From contig JACPGZ010000017.1 of assembly GCA_016188895.1 (NCBI GenBank), forward strand, positions 2,538 through 66,537: 64,000 nucleotides of DNA, read 5' to 3'. Within the stretch, counting starts at the first letter, position 1; each line of letters starts with the position of its first letter. The notes beneath the pieces were generated by a model, which was not told the DNA's origin, ran no database searches, and saw nothing but the letters and a program-made list of their open reading frames with translations. Below, one piece after another: positions 351 to 58,816 of this stretch. The stretch comes from Candidatus Pacearchaeota archaeon. Lineage in GTDB: Archaea > Nanobdellota > Nanobdellia > Pacearchaeales > GW2011-AR1. Position numbers and translations under genes: made by a program.

Positions 351-691
351 TGGCAAAAATATTTCTAAGAAGAAACTGGAACAAATACAAAAGGCTTGGA
401 TTAAGAAACAAGAAGAAGCAGGTTTGGAGAAAACCAAAGGGGATACATAATAAGATGAGGGAAAATAGGAGAGGATATAGTGCAATTGTCAGGATTGGAT
501 ACAGAAAAGGCAGGAAGAACAGAGGCAGGATTGAAGGATTTATTCCTGTGGTTGTGAGAAATTTATCAGATTTAAGCAATGTTGGAAATGATAATATAGT
601 TATAATTGGAAAGGTTGGAAAAAAGAAACGCCAGATTATTCTAGATAAAATTAAAGAATTAAACGCCCATTCCATAGGGCATCGGAGTTGA
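350..691 (+). CDS. rpl32e: 50S ribosomal protein L32e
   Basis: KYKRLG...RKKKQVWRKPKGIHNKMR is an L32e signature. The C-terminus AHSIGHRS-stop is encoded by a dispersed repeat copy. Confidence 0.85.
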   Translation: MAKIFLRRNWNKYKRLGLRNKKKQVWRKPKGIHNKMRENRRGYSAIVRIGYRKGRKNRGRIEGFIPVVVRNLSDLSNVGNDNIVIIGKVGKKKRQIILDKIKELNAHSIGHRS

Positions 692-693
692 TA
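665..693 (+). repeat. dispersed repeat copy (gcccattccatagggcatcggagttga) at the rpl32e/rpl19e junction
   Basis: Same 22-bp core as the other copies, in sense orientation. It supplies the last 8 codons and the stop of rpl32e. Confidence 0.85.
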
Positions 694-1086
694 ATGAATC
701 TTCTAAACAAAAAAAGGCTTGCTGCAGAAACACTTAATGTTGGAGCTGGTAGAATAAAGTTTAATAATGAAAGATTAAGTGAAATAAAAGATGCTATAAC
801 CCGGCAAGATATCCTAGACCTTGTTAAAAGCAAGGCAATAGAGGTAAAAGAGATTAGAGGAAGGAAGCGGAAATATAAAAGAAAGAAAAAAGGGTTCGGC
901 AATATAAGGAAAAAAGTTAAAACGAGAAAGCAGGATTATGTTATACTGACAAGGAAGCTAAGAGCTTATGTTAAAGAACTTAAAAAACAAGGGAGGATAA
1001 CCAAGGACCAATATTATGATATAAGGAGAAGAATAAGAGCAAGGATTTATAAAAGTAAATCTCACTTGAAAAGCTTGTTAGAATGA
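688..1086 (+). CDS. rpl19e: 50S ribosomal protein L19e
   Basis: Basic protein with the L19e pattern (RLAAETLNVGAGRIKF, KRKKKGFGNIRKK). Start overlaps the rpl32e stop (ATGA). Confidence 0.85.
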   Translation: MIMNLLNKKRLAAETLNVGAGRIKFNNERLSEIKDAITRQDILDLVKSKAIEVKEIRGRKRKYKRKKKGFGNIRKKVKTRKQDYVILTRKLRAYVKELKKQGRITKDQYYDIRRRIRARIYKSKSHLKSLLE

Positions 1087-1146
1087 TAAGAGTAAGGTGG
1101 TATATCGCGAGGCATAGAGAACAGGTATCGGAGTAGATCAGACAAA

Positions 1147-5718: not shown

Positions 5719-6132
5719 ATGGTGTTTGAGTTCATAGAAAATTTTATTGTTTCTAATCCAAAGATAGGAGTTATAGCTATTGCTGTGTTTATCAGCTTGA
5801 TTGTAACTCTTGCAAATTATTTTTTGATGGATAAGAAAAGGATGAAAGAGATAAAAGAGAGGCAGAAAGAGCTTCAGGCAGAGCTTAAAAAGCACAAAGG
5901 AAATACTGACAAGGAAAAAGAAATTGGGCAGGAATTGATGAGCCATGCTGCAGAGATGCTGAAGCATTCTTTCAAGCCAATGCTTATAACAATCCTTCCC
6001 ATAATATTAATATTTGGATGGATGCGTAAATTGCTTGTAGATACCAGCATTGCTGGGACATGGTTTTGGTGGTATTTGATAGGAGCAATAGTTTCAGGCA
6101 TGATATTCAGAAAGGTCTTTAAACTTCCATAG
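5719..6132 (+). CDS. DUF106 family membrane protein (Oxa1/EMC3-like insertase homolog)
   Basis: TM1, charged coiled-coil (KRMKEIKERQKELQAELKKHK), then TM2-TM3. This is the DUF106/Mj0480 architecture. Confidence 0.5.
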   Translation: MVFEFIENFIVSNPKIGVIAIAVFISLIVTLANYFLMDKKRMKEIKERQKELQAELKKHKGNTDKEKEIGQELMSHAAEMLKHSFKPMLITILPIILIFGWMRKLLVDTSIAGTWFWWYLIGAIVSGMIFRKVFKLP

Positions 6133-6155
6133 CCCGTTGCATAGGACGAGATAAA

Positions 6156-9858: not shown

Positions 9859-9885
9859 GCCCACTCTGTATGGCATCGGAGTTGG
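9859..9885 (+). repeat. dispersed repeat copy (variant gcccactctgtatggcatcggagttgg) between rpoN and rpl1
   Basis: Core matches with 3 substitutions. Lies in the 5' UTR just before the rpl1 RBS. Confidence 0.7.
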
Positions 9886-9904
9886 ATAGAACGTAGGAGG
9901 TTAT

Positions 9905-11661: not shown

Positions 11662-11757
11662 GCCGCTGTCGCATAATGGTAGTGCACCAGCCTTGAGTTA
11701 TAAAAATAAGTAAGCTGGGCCCTTCGGGGCTTCCAGGTTCGATTCCTGGCAGCGGCG
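11662..11757 (+). tRNA. tRNA-Ser (anticodon TGA/UGA) with a ~15-nt intron at the canonical 37/38 position and a long variable arm
   Basis: Acceptor GCCGCTG/CAGCGGC, discriminator G. D-stem GCAT/GTGC. Anticodon stem CCAGC/GCTGG with loop CTTGAG, then intron TTATAAAAATAAGTA. Variable hairpin GCCCTTCGGGGC. T-arm CCAGG-TTCGATT-CCTGG. Confidence 0.7.
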
Positions 11758-14178: not shown

Positions 14179-15132
14179 ATGGTATATATCAATTTCTTGG
14201 TGCTTGCATTATGGATTGTTTTATTAGTGGGGGGATCTGATTATTTTGTTAAATCTGCATCAAGAATTGCCAAAAGATTAGGGGTATCTGAGCTGGTCAT
14301 TGGTTTAATACTTGTGGCAAATGGCACATCTATTCCAGAGCTTACTGTATCTATATTTTCGGCAATTAAAGGACATACAGAAATTATAGCTGGAAATATT
14401 GTTGGGAGTAATATAGCTGATCTTGCATGGATTGCAGGATTAAGTGCATTGCTATATGGTGGAATGAAGACAAATAAATTAATTTTGAGGAGAGATGGCT
14501 ATATGATGCTCTTTACAACTATTATATTTTTTGTATTTGCACTAACAGGAAGCATAAAATGGTATATGGGTATATTATTTTTGATATTGTATGCAGGATA
14601 TACATATTTTTTATTAAAGAAGAAGCATAGAGGAGAAAAACACCATCTGAAAGAGCATCTCGAGATTAAAGATGGTCTATGGAAGGATATATTAATATTT
14701 ATTATTAGTTGTATAGCAATTTTTATTGGCGGAAAATATCTTGTTGGAGAGATAATATTTATTGCAGCTTTTTTTAGTATTCCTGAAACAGCAATTGGAA
14801 TATTAAATGCAATTGGCACAACACTGCCTGAATTAACAGTTTCTATAATAGCTGGAAGAAAAGGAATGTTAGATTTATTATGGGGCAATATAATTGGAAG
14901 TAATATTACAAACATACTATTTGTTGTTGGAGCATCTTCATTGATTTCTCCCGTTGAAATCATTAAGTTATCTTCTTACTTTACAATTCCGTTTTTGCTT
15001 GGATTGACAATTCTCTCGCTTATATTTATGAGAACCAAATGGAAGGTTTCGCGTTTTGAGGGCGGGATTCTTTTTGCTTTGTATCTGATATTCCTTGCTG
15101 GATTATTTTATTTAAGGACTGGATTGATTTGA
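14179..15132 (+). CDS. Ca2+/Na+ antiporter, CaCA family (YrbG-like)
   Basis: Two alpha-repeat signatures (GTSIPELTVSI...GNIVGSNI and GTTLPELTVSI...GNIIGSNI). ~10 TM segments. Confidence 0.8.
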   Translation: MVYINFLVLALWIVLLVGGSDYFVKSASRIAKRLGVSELVIGLILVANGTSIPELTVSIFSAIKGHTEIIAGNIVGSNIADLAWIAGLSALLYGGMKTNKLILRRDGYMMLFTTIIFFVFALTGSIKWYMGILFLILYAGYTYFLLKKKHRGEKHHLKEHLEIKDGLWKDILIFIISCIAIFIGGKYLVGEIIFIAAFFSIPETAIGILNAIGTTLPELTVSIIAGRKGMLDLLWGNIIGSNITNILFVVGASSLISPVEIIKLSSYFTIPFLLGLTILSLIFMRTKWKVSRFEGGILFALYLIFLAGLFYLRTGLI

Positions 15133-15159
15133 TTAACTCCGATGCCCTATGGAATGGGC
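15133..15159 (-). repeat. dispersed repeat copy (minus orientation) at the YhbY 3' end / antiporter 3' end
   Basis: Reverse complement ggagaaaagcccattccatagggcatcggagttaa. It encodes the YhbY C-terminus AHSIGHRS-stop. Confidence 0.85.
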
Positions 15160-15387
15160 TTTTCTCCATTTTTTTATGAAGATAGTGTAGCCAACAATCT
15201 TGCTTGTGTATTTGTTACCTAGCTCATTAATAATTGACGTATTAATTTCTTTTAACTTTTCCCTGTCCCTGCAGAAATTTTTGAGTACAGTAATCCTTAC
15301 ACTGTCTGAATTTTTAAAGGCATTTTTCACACTCGCCAGAAAACCTGATGTTATGCCTTTCTTTCCAAGCTGAATTGTTATTTGCAT
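15133..15387 (-). CDS. YhbY/CRM-domain RNA-binding protein
   Basis: IQLGKKGITSGFLASVKNAFKNSDSVRITVLKN pattern of the CRM/YhbY fold. C-terminus AHSIGHRS is contributed by a dispersed repeat copy. Confidence 0.6.
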   Translation of the reverse strand: MQITIQLGKKGITSGFLASVKNAFKNSDSVRITVLKNFCRDREKLKEINTSIINELGNKYTSKIVGYTIFIKKWRKAHSIGHRS

Positions 15388-20345: not shown

Positions 20346-20744
20346 ATGTTAAAGAAAAAACCTGTAAAGGAAAAGGGAAAGATCAGGCTTAGTGAATACT
20401 TTAAAGGCCTGAAAGCAGGAGACATGGTAAGCATTGTTAGAGAGCTAAGCCTTGCTACTGGATTTCCTAAAAGATTGCAGGGAAGAACAGGGCAGGTTAT
20501 CAGCAAGAAAGGAGAAGCTTATATAGTGAATATAAATGATAATAAAAAAACTAAACAATACATCATAAGAGCAATACATTTAAGAAAAGCCCATTCCAGC
20601 CCATTCCATAGGGCATCGGAAACACAGAGTACGAGCCCACTGCGTAGGGCATTGCAGACACAGAGAACTGGCCCACTGCGTAGGGCATTGCAGACACAGA
20701 GAACTGGCCCACTGCGTAGGGCATTGCAGACACATCGGAGTTGA
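20346..20744 (+). CDS. rpl21e: 50S ribosomal protein L21e with a repeat-encoded ~45-aa C-terminal tail
   Basis: KIRLSEYFKGLKAGDMVSIV...RLQGRTGQVISKKGEAYIVNINDNKKTKQYIIRAIHLRKA is L21e. The ORF then continues through the 36-bp tandem repeats (HSSPFHRASETQSTSPLRRALQTQRTGPLRRALQTQRTGPLRRALQTHRS). Confidence 0.8.
   Translation: MLKKKPVKEKGKIRLSEYFKGLKAGDMVSIVRELSLATGFPKRLQGRTGQVISKKGEAYIVNINDNKKTKQYIIRAIHLRKAHSSPFHRASETQSTSPLRRALQTQRTGPLRRALQTQRTGPLRRALQTHRS
20589..20744 (+). repeat. tandem array (4 units, 36-bp period, no spacers) of the dispersed CCCAYTSCRTAGGGCATYG repeat
   Basis: Units: cccattccagcccattccatagggcatcggaaacacagagtacgag, cccactgcgtagggcattgcagacacagagaactgg (x2), cccactgcgtagggcattgcagacacatcggagttga. 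Confidence 0.9.
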
Positions 20745-20745
20745 A

Positions 20746-21045
20746 ATGATAAAAGAAAACATGCCATTGAGCCTTTTGGAAGTTAAAGAACTGCTTGACG
20801 AACTGAAGATAGAGAACAAAGAGCTTGATGGATTTTTAAAGAAGTTTATTAAGATAAAATCAGTTGATGAGATTAAAAAGGAACTAAACGGACTTGGGTT
20901 TATCAAGATGAAAGCTGAGCATATTGCAAAGCTCATTGATATCATGCCTGAAAACATACAAGAATTAAACAAGATATTTACAGATGTTACGCTTGATGAA
21001 AATGAGGCAAATAAAATACTTGATATTATTAAAAAACATAAATAA
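20746..21045 (+). CDS. rpoF: DNA-directed RNA polymerase subunit F (Rpb4 homolog)
   Basis: 99 aa. LSLLEVKELLDEL...KIAKLIDIMPENIQELNKIF pattern. Conserved archaeal order rpl21e-rpoF-DUF655. Confidence 0.55.
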   Translation: MIKENMPLSLLEVKELLDELKIENKELDGFLKKFIKIKSVDEIKKELNGLGFIKMKAEHIAKLIDIMPENIQELNKIFTDVTLDENEANKILDIIKKHK

Positions 21046-21047
21046 AA

Positions 21048-21587
21048 ATGACAATCAAAGAAGAACACGCAATCATACTAGATTTCTTACCTTATGGATA
21101 CCCGCTAGAAGGTAAAAGGGTTCCAATAGCCCAGGCTATAGGAATTAATAATTTTATTCTATTGCAGCTTGTTCCAAGAAAGGAAACAGTTTTAGAGATT
21201 AAAGAAAGGGTTTATATTGGAGAAGGAAAAAGAGATAAAATATATTATATTCTTGGAAGACTTCCCAGAGAAAAACTGACGGAAACTGCAAAAAACCAGC
21301 TGAGAGAATTTATTGATAATACTGTTGATGAGAATGAACAAAAATTTGTTGAATTTTTTAATACTTGCCAGCCAATAAACACGCGCTTGCATCAATTAGA
21401 GCTTCTTCCTGGAATGGGAAAAAAGCATACAAGGGAGATTATTGAAGAAAAGAAGAATGGTGAATTTAAATCATTCGAGGATATGAAGAAAAGATTACCT
21501 CACTTGCCAGATCCAAAAACAGCTATAAAGAAAAGAATCTATGAAGAGCTTACGGAATTACAAAGACATAATCTTTTCATAAAATAA
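21048..21587 (+). CDS. DUF655 (COG1491) predicted RNA-binding protein
   Basis: EEHAIILDFLPYGYP...PIAQAIGINNFILLQLVP...ERVYIGEG...FVEFFNTCQPINTRLHQLELLPGMGKK...FKSFEDMKKR. Confidence 0.6.
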   Translation: MTIKEEHAIILDFLPYGYPLEGKRVPIAQAIGINNFILLQLVPRKETVLEIKERVYIGEGKRDKIYYILGRLPREKLTETAKNQLREFIDNTVDENEQKFVEFFNTCQPINTRLHQLELLPGMGKKHTREIIEEKKNGEFKSFEDMKKRLPHLPDPKTAIKKRIYEELTELQRHNLFIK

Positions 21588-21601
21588 CAAGATTTAAGAA
21601 T

Positions 21602-21660
21602 GCCCATTCCAGCCCATTCCATAGGGCATCGGAGTGATGCAGAGCAGAAGCGTCGCGAGG
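21602..21660 (+). repeat. dispersed repeat copy with extended 3' part (…catcggagtgatgcagagcagaagcgtcgcgagg) upstream of rps13
   Basis: cccattccagcccattccatagggcatcggagtgatgcagagcagaagcgtcgcgagg. The 3' extension is shared with the copy at 22696..22743. Confidence 0.85.
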
Positions 21661-21687
21661 CATAGAGGACGGGCGTCGGATTATAAG

Positions 21688-22155
21688 ATGAAGAAAGAAG
21701 ATAATGTAAAGGCAGAAAACGTTTCTCTAGTTAGAATTATGGCGGCAGATATTCCTGGGAACAAGAGCGTCTATGCTGGGCTAACAAGAATAAAAGGTAT
21801 ATCATGGGGCTTATCCAACGCTATTTGCAAAAAACTTGGGATAGATAGATATAGAAAAATATCTAGTTTATCGCACGATGATATCAAAAAGCTGGAGAAA
21901 TATGCTGAAAACCCTGACCTGCCTGTATTTTTAGTTAATAGAAGATATGATAGAGAGACTGGCAAGAATATGCATTTATTTGTGTCTGATTTAGAGCTTG
22001 TTAAAGAGTTTGATATTAAAAGATTAAAACAAATCAGGTCTTACAGAGGATTAAGGCACGCGAGCGGACAGCCTGTAAGAGGGCAGAGAACAAAAAGCCA
22101 TTTTAGAGAGAACAGGGTTGTTGGAGTAATGAAAAAGAAGGTAAAAAGAAAATGA
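21688..22155 (+). CDS. rps13: 30S ribosomal protein S13P (an alternative upstream ATG at 21634 lies inside the repeat)
   Basis: VRIMAADIPGNKSVYAGLTRIKGIS...: S13 N-terminus. The ORF-track start at 21634 would add MMQSRSVARHRGRASDYK, encoded by the repeat. Confidence 0.85.
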   Translation: MKKEDNVKAENVSLVRIMAADIPGNKSVYAGLTRIKGISWGLSNAICKKLGIDRYRKISSLSHDDIKKLEKYAENPDLPVFLVNRRYDRETGKNMHLFVSDLELVKEFDIKRLKQIRSYRGLRHASGQPVRGQRTKSHFRENRVVGVMKKKVKRK

Positions 22156-22607
22156 TGTTCGGAAAAAAACATAGCAAATACAAAAGACCGCGAAAGCTGT
22201 ATGATAAATATAGAATAGAAGCTGAGAAAGAAATTGTCAAGAAATATGGGCTAAAAAATAAGAAAGAGATTTGGAAGGCAGAAGCGGCTATAGAAAGCAT
22301 CAGAAGAAGAGGCAAGATGCTGATAGTTGCTGAGCCTGAAAAACAAAGAAAATTTGTCTCCAAATTGAAAAAAATGAATTTTGATATCAATGAAATTTCA
22401 GATGTCCTTGCATTAAACAAGGAAGATTGGTTAAAAAGAAGATTACAAACTATTGTTTATGAAAAAAAACTTTCTGAAAGCCCTAAGCAGGCAAGACAAC
22501 TTATTGTGCACAAGCATATCGCAGTTGGAGACCATATAATCAATAAACCTTCATACATGGTTGATATGGATGACGAAAAAAAGATAAGGAGGGTTAACAA
22601 TGGCTGA
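22152..22607 (+). CDS. rps4: 30S ribosomal protein S4P
   Basis: KYKRPRKLYDKYRIEAEKEIVKKYGLKNKKEIWKAEAAIESIRRR... and C-terminal S4 domain. Overlaps the S13 stop. Confidence 0.85.
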   Translation: MMFGKKHSKYKRPRKLYDKYRIEAEKEIVKKYGLKNKKEIWKAEAAIESIRRRGKMLIVAEPEKQRKFVSKLKKMNFDINEISDVLALNKEDWLKRRLQTIVYEKKLSESPKQARQLIVHKHIAVGDHIINKPSYMVDMDDEKKIRRVNNG

Positions 22608-23118
22608 AAGCCCACTGCATAGGGCATTGCAGTTGCATAGTACCAGCCCACTGCATAGGGCATCGGAAACACAGAGTACGAGCCCATTACGCTCCCATTC
22701 CATAGAGCATCGGAGTGATGCAGAGCAGAAGCGTCGTGAGGTGGGAGAACGAGAAGGAATTGTTTATATTTTCACATCATTTAACAATACAATTGTTCAT
22801 GCTACAGATTTATCAGGAAATACAATATCGCGCATATCTGGAGGAATTGTTACAAAACAAGATAGACTTAAAGCCAACCCGACTGTTGCTATGTTTGTTG
22901 CAAAAAGGGTGGCTGAAATGTTAAAAGATAACGGGGTAAATGCTCTGTATATTAGAATACGTGCAAAAACAGGAAGCTCTGGGCTAGGACCTGGAGCGCA
23001 TGCTGTTGTAAAGAGCCTATCAAAAGAAGGATTTAGAATTATAAGCATTGTTGATACAACAAGAATACCAAGAGGCGGGCCAAAGCCTGCAGGCGGTAGA
23101 AGGGGAAGACGTGTTTAA
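22600..23118 (+). CDS. rps11: 30S ribosomal protein S11P, either with a ~47-aa repeat-encoded N-terminal extension or starting at GTG 22741
   Basis: GIVYIFTSFNNTIVHATDLSGNTISRISGG is the S11 core. The only in-frame ATG is 22600, upstream of the three repeat units (MAESPLHRALQLHSTSPLHRASETQSTSPLRSHSIEHRSDAEQKRREV...). Confidence 0.8.
   Translation: MAESPLHRALQLHSTSPLHRASETQSTSPLRSHSIEHRSDAEQKRREVGEREGIVYIFTSFNNTIVHATDLSGNTISRISGGIVTKQDRLKANPTVAMFVAKRVAEMLKDNGVNALYIRIRAKTGSSGLGPGAHAVVKSLSKEGFRIISIVDTTRIPRGGPKPAGGRRGRRV
22610..22745 (+). repeat. three tandem units of the dispersed repeat at the rps4/rps11 junction
   Basis: cccactgcatagggcattgcagttgcatagtaccag / cccactgcatagggcatcggaaacacagagtacgag / cccattacgctcccattccatagagcatcggagtgatgcagagcagaagcgtcgtgagg. 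Confidence 0.9.
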
Positions 23119-25558: not shown

Positions 25559-26422
25559 TTAATCTGAAGGTTTTTCTTGTAATTGATTAGCGTCCTTTGC
25601 AATAACATCCTTTAAAGCGTCAAAGGGATTCTTAACCTGTTTTATTTGTTCTTTGCTGATATGGGTGTATAATTGTGTGGTTTGAAGATTACTATGGCCT
25701 AAAATTTCTTGTATTATTCTTATGTCTGTGCCCTGCTCAAGCAAGTGGGTGGCGAACGAGTGGCGAAGTGTGTGCGGCGTAACTCGTTTCTTTATCCCAG
25801 CTTTTTTTGCCACGCTGCTTACTATTTTTTGGATGTTTCTTGTTGTCAATGGCTTGTATTTGGAAAATATATAGCTATTGACGCTGTTTTCTAAATAAAA
25901 AGAAAGTTGTTTTGATATCTCTTTAGACATTATGAACAGGCGATCTTTTTTGCCTTTGCCTCTCCGCACCCATCCTGTGCTTTCCTCGATATCAAGATCT
26001 TCTGGTTTTAGATTTACTAATTCAGAGACCCTTAATCCTGAAGAGTACAAAAGAGATATTATCAAATGAGATTTTTTTGTATCACATGAATTAAGGAGTT
26101 GTTTTACCTCTTCTTTTGTTAATACAGTAGGAAGCTTTTTTTCCTTTTTTGGGATTTTTATATTTGAAAGCTGTTTTTTTAATATCTCCTGGAACATAAA
26201 CCTGATTGCAGAGACTGCTAAAGAAACGGTTGACTTGCTTTTGTCCTTTAATAAATTAGAGAGATAATCTTTAACGTCATTTTCTGTAAGGTTTTCTATA
26301 TTTTTTTGAGAATAAGAAAAGAACTTGTCATTAAAAAAACAATAGTTTCTTATGGTTAATTCAGAGAATCCGCGCAGCCTTAATTCTGATGTCAGTTTTT
26401 CCAATGCCTCTTTATTATCCAT
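25559..26422 (-). CDS. xerA: tyrosine recombinase (XerA/XerCD-like integrase)
   Basis: R...HTLRHSFATHLLEQGTDIRIIQEILGHSNLQTTQLYTHIS: catalytic R-H-R-Y box. 287 aa. Confidence 0.8.
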   Translation of the reverse strand: MDNKEALEKLTSELRLRGFSELTIRNYCFFNDKFFSYSQKNIENLTENDVKDYLSNLLKDKSKSTVSLAVSAIRFMFQEILKKQLSNIKIPKKEKKLPTVLTKEEVKQLLNSCDTKKSHLIISLLYSSGLRVSELVNLKPEDLDIEESTGWVRRGKGKKDRLFIMSKEISKQLSFYLENSVNSYIFSKYKPLTTRNIQKIVSSVAKKAGIKKRVTPHTLRHSFATHLLEQGTDIRIIQEILGHSNLQTTQLYTHISKEQIKQVKNPFDALKDVIAKDANQLQEKPSD

Positions 26423-33473: not shown

Positions 33474-33971
33474 TTATTTCTTGTTTTTGATAATAAGATA
33501 AATAAGAATAACAATTAACATAACAATCAATAATGCCATAACCCACGTAAGAGCCCACAAATTATTATATCTGTAATTCTGCATCATTCCTGAGCCCATC
33601 CCTCCATAACCCATCATGCCTCTTCCCATCATCATGCTCATCATTCCTGTGCTCATTGCATCATGCTCTCCGCAATAAAATGCCTTGCCCATGCTGACAT
33701 GAATTTGTTTCAAACTTGCAGAGCCCTCGCCCCCCATCATCTCGTCCATCTGCTCATGTAACTCGCCAGGATGCATCTGCTCCATGTAATATTCTCCAAG
33801 TATTTCAAGCTGCTCTTCGCTAAGATTGCTACATGATATTTTTTGTTTTATAATTTCTTCAGCTTGAGCAAAATCCTCTTCTCCATGAGCGCTGGCAAAA
33901 ATTGCTATGTTTACTGCTAAGATACCAATTATCAAAAAACTTATCAGATATATTTTGTATTTATTTATCAT
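33474..33971 (-). CDS. Met-rich secreted/membrane-anchored protein, paralog 1 (putative Cu-binding)
   Basis: Signal peptide, HGEEDF..., Met/Gly-rich stretch (MMGGEG...STGMMSMMMGRGMMGYGGMGSGMM), C-terminal TM. ~98% nucleotide identity to 48234..48397 over ~170 bp. Confidence 0.6.
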   Translation of the reverse strand: MINKYKIYLISFLIIGILAVNIAIFASAHGEEDFAQAEEIIKQKISCSNLSEEQLEILGEYYMEQMHPGELHEQMDEMMGGEGSASLKQIHVSMGKAFYCGEHDAMSTGMMSMMMGRGMMGYGGMGSGMMQNYRYNNLWALTWVMALLIVMLIVILIYLIIKNKK

Positions 33972-46776: not shown

Positions 46777-47547
46777 TCATACTAGAGCCTCCTGTATAAT
46801 TCTTTCAATTGTGCCTTTTGGATACCATAATGCATACCATCTCGCCATCTCGCCATAAATCTCTTCATCAGAATATTTATCTCCATAATTTTTAATAAAC
46901 CATTTCGCCATGCCTTGTGCTGCAATTGAGTGAGCACATCCGCAGTGTGTTATGATTGTTGGGTTTTTTGGAGAGCCGCAGCAATAATCACATGTAAATG
47001 AGTTTACTATCCTGTTCCATCTTTCTTGTTCTGAAGAGCTTAATTGCAATGAGCGATAAGTTCCCCAGTTCTTTTGAGAGGTAATTGGATCATCAAATGA
47101 TACTTGCGCTTCTTGTCCGTAAAATGGAGTGCCTGTTGGAACAACATTATTTAGCAAATCTTGGACAGAATCGCCTGTTGATGGTGTTGTTGATAACTCA
47201 CTTATTGTTGGGATTGGTTTTACCTTGCTTTTATATCCTGATATAGCTGGCTCTTCGCCCTGTGCAAGAGGCATTGGCTTTAATGTGATTTTTGAGCCAT
47301 ATTCAAACTTTCCTAGATTGACAGTTCCTCCAATAATTCCAGAGGCATATGCCCTTGGTATTAAAAGCTGATTTATAAAAAGCAAGATAGTCAAAATAAC
47401 CACTCCAGCTAAAATATAATTATTTCTAAATAAAAATGGTTCTGTATCTTGCGATACCCTATGGAATGGGCTCGTGCTCTGTGTTTCCGATGCCCTACGG
47501 AGTGGGCTTTCTTCCATTTTTTCTTCTTTTGTTATGTTGTTTTCCAT
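46777..47547 (-). CDS. membrane-anchored protein with C-terminal CxxCC...HCxCxH cluster; N-terminus encoded by the dispersed repeat
   Basis: FTCDYCCGSPKNPTIITHCGCAHS. N-terminal ...ESPLRRASETQSTSPFHRVSQ comes from the repeat. TM ILAGVVILTILLF. Confidence 0.45.
   Translation of the reverse strand: MENNITKEEKMEESPLRRASETQSTSPFHRVSQDTEPFLFRNNYILAGVVILTILLFINQLLIPRAYASGIIGGTVNLGKFEYGSKITLKPMPLAQGEEPAISGYKSKVKPIPTISELSTTPSTGDSVQDLLNNVVPTGTPFYGQEAQVSFDDPITSQKNWGTYRSLQLSSSEQERWNRIVNSFTCDYCCGSPKNPTIITHCGCAHSIAAQGMAKWFIKNYGDKYSDEEIYGEMARWYALWYPKGTIERIIQEALV
47457..47507 (-). repeat. dispersed repeat copy (two units, minus orientation) inside the 5' end of the 46777..47547 gene
   Basis: Reverse complement cccactccgtagggcatcggaaacacagagcacgagcccattccatagg. 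It is translated as ESPLRRASETQSTSPFHRVSQ. Confidence 0.85.
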
Positions 47548-47548
47548 T

Positions 47549-48103
47549 TTACTTGTTTAGTATATTGCAAGCCTCGCAGTGCCCTGTATAAATACTTTCT
47601 GCTTTAAGGAATAAGGCAAGCCCTAATAATCCTATTGATGATATCTTGAAAACAGATGAGTATTGGGTTAAGAAAGATGTTGGAATATTAAGAAGGGTAG
47701 AGCCAAGTGCAACAACCACAATTCCTTGGCAAACAGGGCATATTGCTCCAAAAAATCCAGCTAATCCTCCGCCAAATCCACCAATAGATGATATAGAAGA
47801 TGAGCGAGTAATATTTTTCTTTTCATATATGAAAAGAACTATGAGAATAGATGCAAATATTGTTATTGCTGCAATAAACACATAATCAAATATACTGACA
47901 GCTGACATCCTGCTAATTCCAAAATCTATGACAGGGATTCTCCATAAACCATATAAAAAGGAGTATGATACTAGAAAAATTAAGATAGTGATGAGCAGAT
48001 TTTTCCTGTGTTGCTTCTCATTCAAAATACTAATAGCATGTTTTATTGCTCCTTCTCCTTTAAATTTGTCTTTCATTTTCTTTTGTTTGTTTTCAATAGC
48101 CAT
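47549..48103 (-). CDS. CPxC-motif multi-TM protein, paralog A
   Basis: GGFGGGLAGFFGAICPVCQGIVVVALGSTLL in a TM helix, C-terminal HCEAC. Confidence 0.45.
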   Translation of the reverse strand: MAIENKQKKMKDKFKGEGAIKHAISILNEKQHRKNLLITILIFLVSYSFLYGLWRIPVIDFGISRMSAVSIFDYVFIAAITIFASILIVLFIYEKKNITRSSSISSIGGFGGGLAGFFGAICPVCQGIVVVALGSTLLNIPTSFLTQYSSVFKISSIGLLGLALFLKAESIYTGHCEACNILNK

Positions 48104-48576
48104 ATTATTATTGCTATAACAACGAGGATTATTAGTATTAATACAAGCAAGACTATAGGATTATTATAATTTGCTCCTTGTTGATTAAACATGCCTTCCA
48201 TCATGCCACTAGAACCTATCATCCCTCTGTTCATCATCATGCTCATCATTCCTGTGCTCATTGCATCATGCTCTCCGCAATAAAATGCCTTGCCCATGCT
48301 GACATGAATTTGTTTCAAACTTGCTGATCCCTCGCCCCCCATCATCTCGTCCATCTGCTCATGTAACTCGCCAGGATGCATCTGCTCCATGTAATACTCG
48401 CCAATTACTTCGAGCTGATCGTCTGTGAGCTGGTTGCATTGAATTTTGCTCTTAATTAACTCTTCTGCCTTTGCAAAATCTTCTTCGCCATGAGCGCTTA
48501 CAATTGCAATTCCTATTAAGAAGATTGCAATAAATACACCTATTTTTGCTTTCATTTTATTCTTATGTTTTATCAT
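48073..48576 (-). CDS. Met-rich secreted/membrane-anchored protein, paralog 2
   Basis: Same architecture as the 33474 gene. Central 56 codons nearly identical at the DNA level. Confidence 0.6.
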   Translation of the reverse strand: MIKHKNKMKAKIGVFIAIFLIGIAIVSAHGEEDFAKAEELIKSKIQCNQLTDDQLEVIGEYYMEQMHPGELHEQMDEMMGGEGSASLKQIHVSMGKAFYCGEHDAMSTGMMSMMMNRGMIGSSGMMEGMFNQQGANYNNPIVLLVLILIILVVIAIIIWLLKTNKRK

Positions 48577-56842: not shown

Positions 56843-57000
56843 TTGTGTTGGAAAATGTGTTGGGTTTTGTGTTGGAGTTTATTTGACGACGATAAAATTG
56901 GGTGTTGAAAGGTGTTTAAGGGTGTTTAGACAGCTGTCTAAAGGGTTTTTTCGGTGTTGAAAAGGGTGTTTAAAACAGATTTTTCTGTGATTTTGATGAT
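56843..57000. repeat. iteron-like cluster of GTGTTGG / GGTGTT(T/G)AAA direct repeats plus palindrome TAGACAGCTGTCTA
   Basis: tgtgttggaaaatgtgttgggttttgtgttggag ... ggtgttgaaaggtgtttaagggtgtttagacagctgtctaaagggttttttcggtgttgaaaagggtgtttaaaa. Related motifs recur at 57350-57470 and 58380-58660. Confidence 0.6.
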
Positions 57001-57110
57001 TGGACACTATAAAAACATGATCAAAAATGATTGCTTTAAAATAAACAATTTATCGACGATATTGGCATTGAGTGGAAAAGATTTATAAAGAAGAATTTGG
57101 TTAATTAATT

Positions 57111-57770
57111 ATGTTTAGGTGGCTGTTTAGTGGCAAAAAAGAGATAGATAAGATAAAAGAAGATACTCGAAGAGCTTTTGAATCTGTGAAAAATGATATG
57201 GATAAGGCTGGCAAATGGTTTAAACACCTGTCCAAAACTGATTCTGACCAGGAAGATAAGATTAGTGAGCTAAAATCAAAAATATCGACGCTGGAAAAAG
57301 ATATTGAAAAACTGCATAAAATTGTTTTGTTGAACAAAAGTGAAAATTTTAGACAGGTGTTTAGACAGCCTTCAACAGCTGTCTATAGACAAGCACCTGT
57401 CCAAGCTGTCCAAACAGGTGTTGAAAACGCTGTCCAAACAGGTGTTGAAGGCTATTTTTTGATTGATTTAAATAACTTGTCTGTGATGGAAAGAGCAATT
57501 GTTTATTTATTGTTGAATAGTGACATGAAATTAAGCTATGAGGATATTGCTGCAATGCTTGGAAAAAGCAGGTCAACAATAAGAAGCCAAATAAGTGTGA
57601 TAAAACAAAAAAGTGAGAATTTAATAAAAGAGTATATTGAAAAAAACGGTAAGAAAAGAGTATATATTCCTGATGAAATCAAAGAAAAGATACTTAAAAA
57701 TAAGAAAGTGAAGGAGATTAAACGAAAAAATAAGAAAAATAGTGAGAAAGAAGAGGTGAGTTATGCGTAA
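57111..57770 (+). CDS. coiled-coil / repeat / C-terminal HTH protein (paralog of the 58025 gene)
   Basis: N-terminal coiled-coil. Central repeat (VQAVQTGVENAVQTGVEG) encoded by iteron-like DNA. C-terminal HTH LSYEDIAAMLGKSRSTIRSQISVIKQK. Confidence 0.4.
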   Translation: MFRWLFSGKKEIDKIKEDTRRAFESVKNDMDKAGKWFKHLSKTDSDQEDKISELKSKISTLEKDIEKLHKIVLLNKSENFRQVFRQPSTAVYRQAPVQAVQTGVENAVQTGVEGYFLIDLNNLSVMERAIVYLLLNSDMKLSYEDIAAMLGKSRSTIRSQISVIKQKSENLIKEYIEKNGKKRVYIPDEIKEKILKNKKVKEIKRKNKKNSEKEEVSYA

Positions 57771-58024: not shown

Positions 58025-58816
58025 TTATAGTTCTCTAAGCCTTAATATTGTGTCTAAAGTAGCTATTTTCTTTAGATCAGGTGAAATGTGAAGGAGTATT
58101 TTTTTGTTGTTTATTTTTTCTTTTGATATTGGGATGCCTTTATTAATTAAGTGCTTTATATATTCTCGAATAGAGCTTTCAGATATATTCATTTCAGATG
58201 CAATTAGATGGTAATTCACTTCGCGACCTTCTTCCTCAAGTTGGTAGAGATGTGAAAAAACAAGTAACTCCTTTTTAGTTAATCTTTTAAATTTGAGGCG
58301 GATTTCTTTCTTTATTGTGTCTAAAGAGGCAAGGATTTCAGATGCTTTTTCCATGCTTTCCCTGGTTTTCCGGCTCGATACTTCATCATTAAAGCGAACT
58401 TTATCTGTTGGAAAATGTGTTGGATTATCTGTTGGTTTGTTTGTTGGTTTGTTTGTTGGATTATCTGTTGGAACCCCTCTGTTTCCTATGGAAACATCAT
58501 TATACTGGCTTTTTACAGCTTTTAAAGGCAAATCATCTGTTGGATTTTGTGTTGGATTTTGATTATCTGTTGGAATTTCTATGTTTTGTGTTGGATTTAT
58601 GTGTTGGATTGTTGGAAAATGTGTTGGGTTTTGGGTTTTGGTGTTTTCATCTGGTTTTTTCTGTTTTATCTCGTTAGATACTTCCTGAATCAGTGATATT
58701 AGTGCTGGGAATTCGTCTGTAATTTTATTGATTTTTAGCTTTAATGATTCTATCTCCTGCTCTATTCTATTGATGTCTTCTTTTACTTTTGAGAATGCTT
58801 GTTTTATCTGTTCCAT
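58025..58816 (-). CDS. coiled-coil / Pro-Thr-Asn repeat / C-terminal HTH protein
   Basis: N-terminal coiled-coil. NPTHFPT / PTDNPTNKPTNKPTDNPTHFPT repeats. C-terminal HTH NYHLIASEMNISESSIREYIKHLINKGIP. Confidence 0.4.
   Translation of the reverse strand: MEQIKQAFSKVKEDINRIEQEIESLKLKINKITDEFPALISLIQEVSNEIKQKKPDENTKTQNPTHFPTIQHINPTQNIEIPTDNQNPTQNPTDDLPLKAVKSQYNDVSIGNRGVPTDNPTNKPTNKPTDNPTHFPTDKVRFNDEVSSRKTRESMEKASEILASLDTIKKEIRLKFKRLTKKELLVFSHLYQLEEEGREVNYHLIASEMNISESSIREYIKHLINKGIPISKEKINNKKILLHISPDLKKIATLDTILRLREL

Follow-up and report, generated by a model that had tools for sequence, protein, structure and literature searches.

A short interspersed repeat at cistron junctions of a Pacearchaeota genome and its probable translation as part of ribosomal proteins L21e and S11

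The 64,000-nucleotide (nt) stretch of a Candidatus Pacearchaeota genome analysed here (contig JACPGZ010000017.1; hereafter, the window) carries a short repeat at the junctions of its ribosomal protein genes. Our reading, which comes from sequence comparison and to which we give a probability of about 0.7, is that a lineage-specific repeat of conserved sequence has spread into cistron junctions here and in related DPANN archaea from groundwater, that the host open reading frames (ORFs) stay open, that the proteins L21e and S11 are extended and that S13 keeps its start. The anatomy of the repeat, the occurrence of empty and filled sites, the preservation of reading frame and the strength of the Shine–Dalgarno (SD) sequences are established. 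An earlier note on this DNA had put forward, as one of two alternatives, repeat-derived tails on all three ribosomal proteins. This has held up for L21e and S11, where the ancestral S11 start and SD are retained, the S11 frame is kept in three lineages and the L21e of relative L119 is tailed as well, but not for S13. Alignment with orthologues, as that note had advised, shows that L21e homology ends at residue 83, that the S11 insert is delimited after Met-Ala-Glu and that S13 shares its MKKED start. Our literature search on the sequence, on Pacearchaeota repeats and on ribosomal protein extensions in DPANN archaea found no description of the repeat.

The core of the repeat is GCCCAYTSCRTAGGGCAT and its extended core GCCCAYTSCRTAGGGCAT-YGSAG. 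Matches to the motif CCCAYTSCRTAGGGCAT number 13 at seven loci in the window (0.30 are expected from shuffled sequences), and a long-form profile used with nhmmer adds an eighth locus, a partial copy at 1096–1135 (E = 4.1e-05). Copies take the form of single units of ~23 nt, tandem units of 36 nt or composite long forms of ~70–100 nt, the last of these, [GCCCATTCCAT GCCCATTACGCATA] GCCCAYTCCRTAGGGCATCGGAGTTGGATAGAACGAGGGCATCGCGAGGCATAGAGAACNGGCATCGGAGT, being assembled from shuffled sub-modules. Tandem arrays with the 36-nt period are found at 20598–20734 (3.8 copies) and 22609–22686 (2.2 copies). All eight loci are in the sense orientation relative to their flanking genes: six lie on the plus strand in ribosomal protein operons, at the L32e/L19e, L19e/L18, RpoN/L1, L21e/RpoF, DUF655/S13 and S4/S11 junctions, and two on the minus strand within minus-strand genes, a CRM/YhbY-domain gene and a membrane-protein ORF. 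Two of the three sense frames of the units are free of stop codons and the third is closed by the TAG of the loop; each tandem unit spans exactly 12 codons. The 3' end reads CATCGGAGTTGA, or the same with TAA, an SD-like GGAG followed by a stop. An upstream ORF that runs into the repeat would thus stay open up to a stop within 1–5 nt of the following ATG, which would itself have a good SD ahead of it.

The three ribosomal protein genes belong to one archaeal cluster:

20.3–23.8 kb: L21e, RpoF (Rpb4-like), DUF655, S13, S4, S11 and RpoD

Profile matches over the full domain assign the proteins to the eL21, uS11 and uS13 families (Pfam E values of 5.2e-16 for L21e residues 4–83, 3.8e-25 for S11 residues 53–168 and 1.7e-34 for S13), and archaeal ribosome chains in the PDB match the window S11 at 1.5e-32 and L21e at 2e-11. 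The window S11, S13, L21e and L32e are exact matches to NCBI proteins encoded on a contig of 110,457 bp. SD strength was taken as the duplex energy with an assumed anti-SD and compared across 79 ORFs; the window contains no rRNA gene.

20346–20744 (+): L21e ORF, 132 amino acids (aa); domain at residues 4–83 (to ~20594), stop TGA at 20742–20744 in the 3' end of the repeat
20585–20745 (+): repeat array at the L21e/rpoF junction; half-unit head, 36-nt units at 20598, 20634, 20670 and 20706, terminus CATCGGAGTTGAA

L21e residues 84–132 (20595–20741) form a repeat-encoded tail of 49 aa, basic and composed of Ser, Pro, Arg, Thr and Gln. The reading frame passes through the four units as S-P-L-R-R-A-L-Q-T-Q-R-T, giving stretches such as ...IHLRKAHSSPFHR... 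and ...LQTHRS, and stops at the TGA of the terminus CATCGGAGTTGAAATG; NCBI likewise annotates 132 aa. The earlier note's figure of about 45 extra codons for rpl21e is close, and the tail that it quoted is exact. In 13 relatives L21e ends 1–3 residues past the conserved IHLK/RK motif, at 82–85 aa, and solved archaeal L21e chains end two residues past it. Relative L120 is repeat-free, being empty at the L21e/rpoF, DUF655/S13 and S4/S11 junctions, and its L21e ends ...IHLRRIE, with the TGA overlapping the rpoF ATG and the rpoF SD (GAGGAG) lying within the L21e 3' end; the empty site in L120 and L121 reads ...CATTTGAGGAGAATAGAATGATAAAGG. In the window this ancestral SD has decayed to AAGAAA, the repeat is inserted between, and the array terminus provides a GGAG 5 nt before the rpoF ATG (20746) with a duplex energy of -8.7 kcal/mol, among the strongest in the window.

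A shorter repeat occupies the same site in L119, the closest relative and from another sample, where the L21e tail is AHPMPITHRASRGIEDGHRS followed by a stop. The tail enters the repeat in the same register in this independent assembly, which argues against the possibility, also raised in the earlier note, that a sequencing error hides an L21e stop; moreover, with a unit of 36 nt (12 codons), errors in copy number cannot shift the frame. AlphaFold2 gives residues 84–132 a predicted local distance difference test score (pLDDT) of ~50 and no secondary structure. A search of 1.84 billion protein representatives with the 50-aa tail peptide returned no true homologues: all 17 matches were unrelated tandem 12-residue repeats, and the tail was ruled out as a protein module on this ground. 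Most likely, on these comparisons, L21e carries a repeat-derived tail of 49 residues.

At the S4/S11 junction the repeat lies on the other side of a start codon:

22587–22593 (+): SD AGGAGGG, 6 nt before the S11 ATG, within the end of the S4 gene
22600–23118 (+): S11 ORF, 172 aa, starting at ATG 22600 (Met-Ala-Glu); the NCBI annotation is also 172 aa
22609–22746 (+): in-frame repeat insert of 138 nt (46 codons), two 36-nt units and a long-form tail module, stop-free

ATG 22600, in the earlier note the only in-frame ATG of rps11, is the first start codon of the open S11 frame, and the Pfam S11 domain begins at residue 53. The SD duplex (-10.5 kcal/mol) is the third best of the 79 ORFs, and the arrangement SD-ATG-GCT-GAA is kept in four relatives (L001, L002, L003 and L120), by which comparison ATG 22600 is the ancestral start. 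What follows it is not the 47-aa leader of the earlier note but a 46-codon insert after Met-Ala-Glu: the window protein consists of MAE, 46 repeat-encoded codons (with stretches including MAESPLHR... and ...QKRREVGEREGIVYIF) and EREGIVYIF, a net gain of 44 aa over repeat-free orthologues (128 aa). The latter begin MAEDKEREGIVYIF (L003, P0004) or MVEEKEGIVYIF (L120). Inserts in relatives read MAED-SPAHSIGHRSEIEQKHRETGD-REGIVYIF (P0002) and MAED-SPLHSPLRRASELDRTGPLRIGHRETGE-KEGIVYIF (P0003). The site is filled in three diverged lineages (77–85% protein identity), with net gains of 44 (window), 19 (L001) and 26 (L002) codons, all in frame and stop-free. Frame usage within the insert varies among them: openness is preserved and the peptide is not, the pattern to be expected of an insert that ribosomes have to cross once they have initiated at the ancestral ATG. 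Translation by read-through is the best reading of the S11 insert, for which AlphaFold2 gives residues 1–50 a pLDDT of 42–56.

Copies at the remaining window loci, apart from that ahead of S13, are as follows:

661–694 (+): single unit at the L32e/L19e junction; gives the L32e tail ...NAHSIGHRS and stop, and supplies GGAGTTGATA before the L19e ATG (694)
1096–1135 (+): partial copy, the 3' half of the long form (GGTATATCGCGAGGCATAGAGAACAGGTATCGGAGT), between L19e and L18
9855–9897 (+): diverged copy in the RpoN/L1 intergenic spacer, overlapping no coding sequence
15130–15163 (-): single unit at the 3' end of a CRM/YhbY-domain gene (15133–15387, -), with the tail ...KAHSIGHRS and stop
47444–47511 (-): two in-frame units near the N-terminus of a membrane-protein ORF (46777–47547, -): ...MEESPLRRASETQSTSPFHRVS...

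The GGAG of the repeat is the SD of L19e (-9.7 kcal/mol) as it is of rpoF. In the window the family is found in frame in the unrelated genes for L21e, L32e, S11, the YhbY-like protein and the membrane-protein ORF (which has no Pfam match); in relatives the S13 gene and a zinc-ribbon gene are also hosts. The frame in which the core is read varies between lineages (SPLRRASE versus AHSIGHRS). All four C-terminal tails observed (L21e, L32e, YhbY-like and the L21e of L119) end in HRS at the repeat's own TGA or TAA. A possible degenerate 5' module, CTTCCATAGCCCGTTGCATAGGACGAG, is found at 6125–6155 between an EMC3/YidC-like gene and prefoldin (a weak nhmmer match, E ~2); the EMC3/YidC-like gene seems to end at the TAG of ...CCATAG, that is, in the sole stop-bearing sense frame of the repeat.

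Further evidence comes from other genomes. A degenerate 22-nt pattern identified 19 metagenome loci, 18 of them on AT-rich groundwater (Hainich) contigs with DPANN-type gene content. A 17-nt pattern scan of GTDB genomes, in which we estimate that ~500 matches would arise by chance, gave among the matches listed just three informative loci, each in a Woesearchaeota-labelled metagenome-assembled genome (MAG) that carries the repeat. A scan of viral contigs gave no matches. The metagenome copies sit between co-oriented genes, usually directly upstream of a start. Several junctions are filled in more than one species, with flanks 65–80% identical: L32e/L19e, which is occupied in L104 and L112 as well as in the window, and that between the zinc-ribbon gene and a neighbouring membrane gene. 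The L13/S9 junction is filled in L108 and empty in the window and L001. A 96-nt long form, placed beside an existing unit, distinguishes the near-identical contigs L107 and L115, which shows the family to be dynamic; new insertions seem to be favoured where a copy already lies or where there is microhomology (GAAAG on the left, GGAG on the right). Exact matches to the 17-nt core were also seen in GC-rich tandem repeats of L037 (2568–2719, 45-nt period) and L079 (1423–1475, 36-nt period), binned as Bacteriovoracaceae and Anaerolineaceae. These contigs are 48–55% GC and differ in context, on which grounds both were rejected as family members; they are probably convergent or coding repeats.

Translation of the extensions, a role in coupling and the mode of spread are what we infer from these sequences. 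A copy inserted at a gene's 3' end or immediately behind a start codon would leave the host ORF open. A ribosome arriving from upstream would cross the repeat and terminate beside the downstream start, and termination–reinitiation coupling could in this way be kept in the tight ribosomal protein operons. The cost would be extra residues on the upstream protein or, when a copy lands just past a start, at the N-terminus of the downstream one. The products would be L21e with its 49-aa tail, L32e and the YhbY-like protein with 8-aa tails (AHSIGHRS), S11 with its 46-codon insert and S13 unextended. Disorder is predicted for the extension peptides, their amino-acid sequence is not conserved, and the termini that bear them are extension-tolerant; the peptides are most readily viewed as tolerated by-products of a DNA repeat that is selfish or driven by recombination.

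Several points weigh against this. Translation of the extensions is deduced from the ORFs and from comparative frame preservation, in events that are few and partly non-independent, and a single ancestral insertion probably accounts for all three S11 lineages. There are no terminal inverted repeats: the ends, GAAAG-CCCA... and ...GGAGT, are not inverted copies, and the only complementarity is internal and of 4–5 base pairs (bp). In L108 a 23-nt unit is flanked on both sides by TTGAAATGAA, but GGAGTTGAAATG also ends other copies and may be part of the element or a microhomology; no clean target-site duplication was found at the other filled sites examined. No transposase was seen in the window, the search for REP-associated tyrosine transposases (RAYT) extending to the ORFs inspected. 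Conservation of the core, the strict sense orientation and a compensatory stem variant could mean a function at the RNA level and not mere tolerance. For S13, a 17-aa extension from ATG 21637 is conceivable, being in frame, stop-free and starting at the first AUG if the transcript begins ~29 nt past the TATA-like box.

The RNA-level explanation survives best among the alternatives, although we hold it only tentatively. In it the repeat would act in cis as a functional RNA motif, in which a small hairpin, its loop (UAGGGCAU) conserved, is joined to an SD; the motif would be recognised by a trans-acting protein or RNA, or would serve as a portable ribosome-binding and coupling cassette that co-regulates ribosomal protein operons. 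The peptide extensions would then be side effects or even selected basic tails, and in this it partly overlaps our preferred explanation. The sense orientation at all eight window loci and at most metagenome loci favours it, as do the junctions filled across species, the compensatory variants of a second stem described below and the GGAG that acts as SD at two junctions. Against it, nine copies fold no better than shuffles (z from -1.95 to +0.48), and RNAalifold finds in ten long forms just a 4-bp invariant helix with no covariation. A second, hand-drawn stem of 4–5 bp (YTSCR with YGSAR) has the compensatory variants TTCCA/CGGAG, CTCCG/CGGAG, CTGCG/TGCAG and CTGCG/CGCAG (L123), one of them in a locus found via protein similarity. 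This covariation is modest, being reached by 3 of 500 shuffles and amounting to one or two events in a collection-biased sample, many of whose loci were gathered with a pattern that fixes the core. We did not accept the 100% identity of the core at orthologous junctions as a sign of selection, since those loci were found by exact core match. At many loci, too, a separate SD follows the repeat or the GGAG is too distant from the start, and the number of copies and the arrangement of modules differ freely from one relative to another, nearly identical ones included. A role for the repeat in RNA is possible.

A curated structured RNA, including ribosomal protein leaders and box C/D RNAs, was rejected on the 4-bp helix and on the Rfam searches, which gave no match to the repeat at the gathering threshold across the window or at E <= 10 for 20550–22800 and five metagenome loci. 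A miniature inverted-repeat transposable element (MITE) was rejected for want of terminal inverted repeats; repetitive extragenic palindromic sequences and bacterial interspersed mosaic elements (REP/BIME) were rejected because there is no stable palindrome, all copies are direct and sense, and several of them run into coding sequence. The units abut directly, with no spacers between them, and a CRISPR origin was rejected for that reason. A one-peptide Rickettsia palindromic element (RPE) of ~100–150 bp could not be fitted to units of 23–36 nt that fold like shuffles, use two frames and encode a peptide without true homologues. A variant, CTCCGTAGGG...CGGAGTTGGAT (9860–9890 in the window, 406–440 in L002, and in L102, L113 and L118), seems to resemble helix 45 and the 3' end of 16S rRNA, CCGUAGGGGAACCUGCGG(C/U)UGGAUCACCUCC; the likeness is weak in the commonest variant and was set aside.

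For S13 the question is which of two in-frame starts is used:

21593–21600 (+): TATA-like box TTTAAGAA of the S13 operon, the putative promoter; 23–24 nt before the S13 ATG in repeat-free relatives (a leaderless arrangement)
21601–21687 (+): long-form copy between the TATA-like box and the S13 start, in the 5' leader; nhmmer E = 5.9e-18 against the long-form model
21688–22155 (+): S13 coding sequence, 155 aa, beginning MKKEDNVKAENVSLVRIM...; the NCBI start is identical and the Pfam S13 domain lies 15 codons downstream

Alignment with L120 shows that the leader copy replaces a 23-nt spacer. TATA-like motifs (TTTAAA, TTTATA, TTTAAG) show a sharp peak 27–30 nt before the ATG in the window (21 of 78 ORFs of at least 100 aa), and SD-like motifs are absent upstream of 60 of the 79 ORFs; hence first cistrons mostly look leaderless, with SDs apparently restricted to internal cistrons. 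S13 most likely keeps its normal, ancestral start at ATG 21688, with the repeat in the 5' leader: the L120 orthologue begins MKKEDITTKAEGVSLVRIM (MKKED...), and the annotated start is the same. The ATG pair that the earlier note placed at 21634 reads GTG-ATG, and the extension it drew from the repeat is optional, not forced.

That S13 is nevertheless extended, by 17–18 residues from ATG 21637 or GTG 21634, strikes us as rather unlikely. Both codons lie inside the leader copy, and ATG 21637 is in phase with S13 with no stop before 21688; we estimate that such a stretch of 17 codons would arise by chance in ~15% of cases. A transcript starting at the predicted ~29 nt past the TATA-like box (21593) would have AUG 21637 as its first, with a GGAG just upstream, and the SD of ATG 21688 is weak (-3.3 kcal/mol). 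Furthermore, relative P0163/L123 keeps the short promoter spacing and tolerates one repeat unit in frame after MKKE (MKKEESPFNRASENK...), which by its position must be translated. Against this, the GGAG ends 2 nt before ATG 21637, too close to serve it, and the equivalent GTGATG module is out of the S11 frame in the S11 copy, so that it is not a general start. In favour of the main reading, the S13-leader copy retains a TAG in the frame that is coding in the S11 copy, where that TAG is missing; such a contrast would fit a selection for openness that is confined to translated copies.

Less probable again is that the repeat is a portable intercistronic module of DPANN archaea, combining a sequence-specific binding site, SD and stop, that sets coupling or co-regulates ribosomal protein operons and whose basic, disordered translations have been co-opted as rRNA-contacting tails on eL21, eL32 and uS11. 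Were it true, this would be a live example of ribosomal protein extensions arising from mobile DNA.

It is very unlikely that S11 is unextended, starting at GTG 22741 or another non-ATG codon in or after the repeat, with the 172-aa ORF an annotation artefact. This GTG, offered in the earlier note as an alternative start, is indeed in frame, 11 codons before the Pfam S11 start, and the SD-like GAGGTGGGAG overlaps it. However, it sits inside that string, leaving no spacing, and the 20 nt upstream pair with the anti-SD at -4.4 kcal/mol as against -10.5 kcal/mol for ATG 22600. Relatives with and without the repeat share both ATG 22600 and its SD, L001 and L002 keep the insert in frame although neither has an equivalent in-frame GTG or ATG, and an untranslated insert gives no reason for a length that is a multiple of three in three lineages. 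The inspection for SDs that the earlier note had advised at GTG 22741 and ATG 21688 thus yields no usable one at the former and the weak one at the latter. Forced non-ATG or internal initiation, the other outcome it had envisaged, finds no support here and is inapplicable to S13, where the repeat is upstream of ATG 21688.

Least probable of all is that the extensions are artefacts, of a misassembled array, of an indel error hiding a stop or start, or of a repeat that is spliced out like a bulge-helix-bulge intron: the source is a MAG, short tandem repeats are hard to assemble and the repeat lies exactly at gene boundaries, but independent assemblies of other samples (Logan SRR22388039 and ENA ERZ27284378) carry these insertions at S11 and L21e in an unchanged register, the exact tailed L32e protein occurs on four contigs, including Logan assemblies, the minimum free energy folds of 22600–22745 and 20585–20730 pair locally with the insert ends not joined (no dedicated bulge-helix-bulge search was made), the insert boundaries vary by lineage, and excision would make the observed preservation of frame needless.

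Returning to our preferred explanation, that of a tolerated repeat at cistron junctions, the closest analogue is to be found in the RPEs of Rickettsia, multicopy short repeats inserted in frame in genes at sites presumed to be compatible with fold and function (PMC10969869). Both are short, multicopy, non-coding repeats found inside unrelated and often essential genes, where the host ORF is kept open and translated, or in our case probably translated, with an extra peptide segment. RPEs, however, are bacterial, ~100–150 bp long and palindromic, with one conserved peptide frame, whereas the present repeat is archaeal (DPANN), has 23–36-nt units in tandem arrays and shuffled composites, shows no significant palindrome and uses two frames; it is also almost solely located at cistron boundaries, in sense, with an SD and stop at its 3' end. 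REP/BIME, enterobacterial repetitive intergenic consensus (ERIC), Correia and RUP elements and the archaeal MITEs, for which there are precedents in Sulfolobus and haloarchaea, resemble it as short GC-rich multicopy sequences in transcribed intercistronic regions that can affect the mRNA or translation of their neighbours. The present repeat differs in having no stable stem-loop, terminal inverted repeats, alternating orientation or transposase in the window, and in overlapping coding ends.

Extensions of the same proteins are known elsewhere. Eukaryotic eL21 (157–166 aa) has ~60 residues beyond the archaeal L21e end, at the terminus that bears the present tail, and eukaryotic uS11 has 25–45 extra residues at the N-terminus, where the present insert lies. 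Within DPANN archaea, uS11 varies from 125 to 202 aa through variable K/E-rich N-terminal extensions, and, long extensions being common there, that of S11 is less unusual than the earlier note had claimed. Those extensions are gene-specific, whereas the present ones copy a genome-wide interspersed repeat shared by unrelated genes and non-coding spacers, and it is this source that is unusual. Two further DPANN uS11 proteins, P0038 (174 aa) and P0067 (202 aa), are otherwise identical, but in the latter a KKSEAENTEKIERE segment of the N-terminal extension is tandemly duplicated, which marks the uS11 N-terminus, as far as such comparison goes, as a general hotspot for length change in DPANN archaea.

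If the extensions are translated, the ribosomes of an ultra-small archaeon would contain at least three proteins bearing segments of an interspersed repeat; selfish DNA inside essential genes, best known from Rickettsia, would reach archaea and the ribosome, and there would be a concrete route for the origin of ribosomal protein terminal extensions. The repeat also accounts for the label 'hypothetical protein' that this L21e and L32e bear at NCBI, and, as an unannotated family, it will confuse the calling of starts and stops in DPANN MAGs.

Some other features of the window deserve mention. A XerA-like tyrosine recombinase gene (Phage_integrase; 25559–26422, -) occupies the same place downstream of S9 in L001 (2956–3789) and looks like a conserved chromosomal gene, not the marker of a mobile element. 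The Rfam tRNA model matches 11662–11757 (49 bits, 96 nt), where ARAGORN calls no tRNA; this may be an intron-containing or atypical archaeal tRNA. A direct repeat of 300 nt (85% identity) is present at 33597–33896 and 48202–48501, 14.6 kb apart; its second copy overlaps a Met/Gly-rich small membrane-protein ORF (48073–48576, -) and the gene may be duplicated. Finally, arrays of a 12-nt TGTTGG-containing repeat occur at 56846–56882 and 58401–58675 (six copies at 58401–58472), with further GGGTGTTTA/TAGACAGCTGTCTA motifs at 56900–57390; both are unrelated to the junction repeat.

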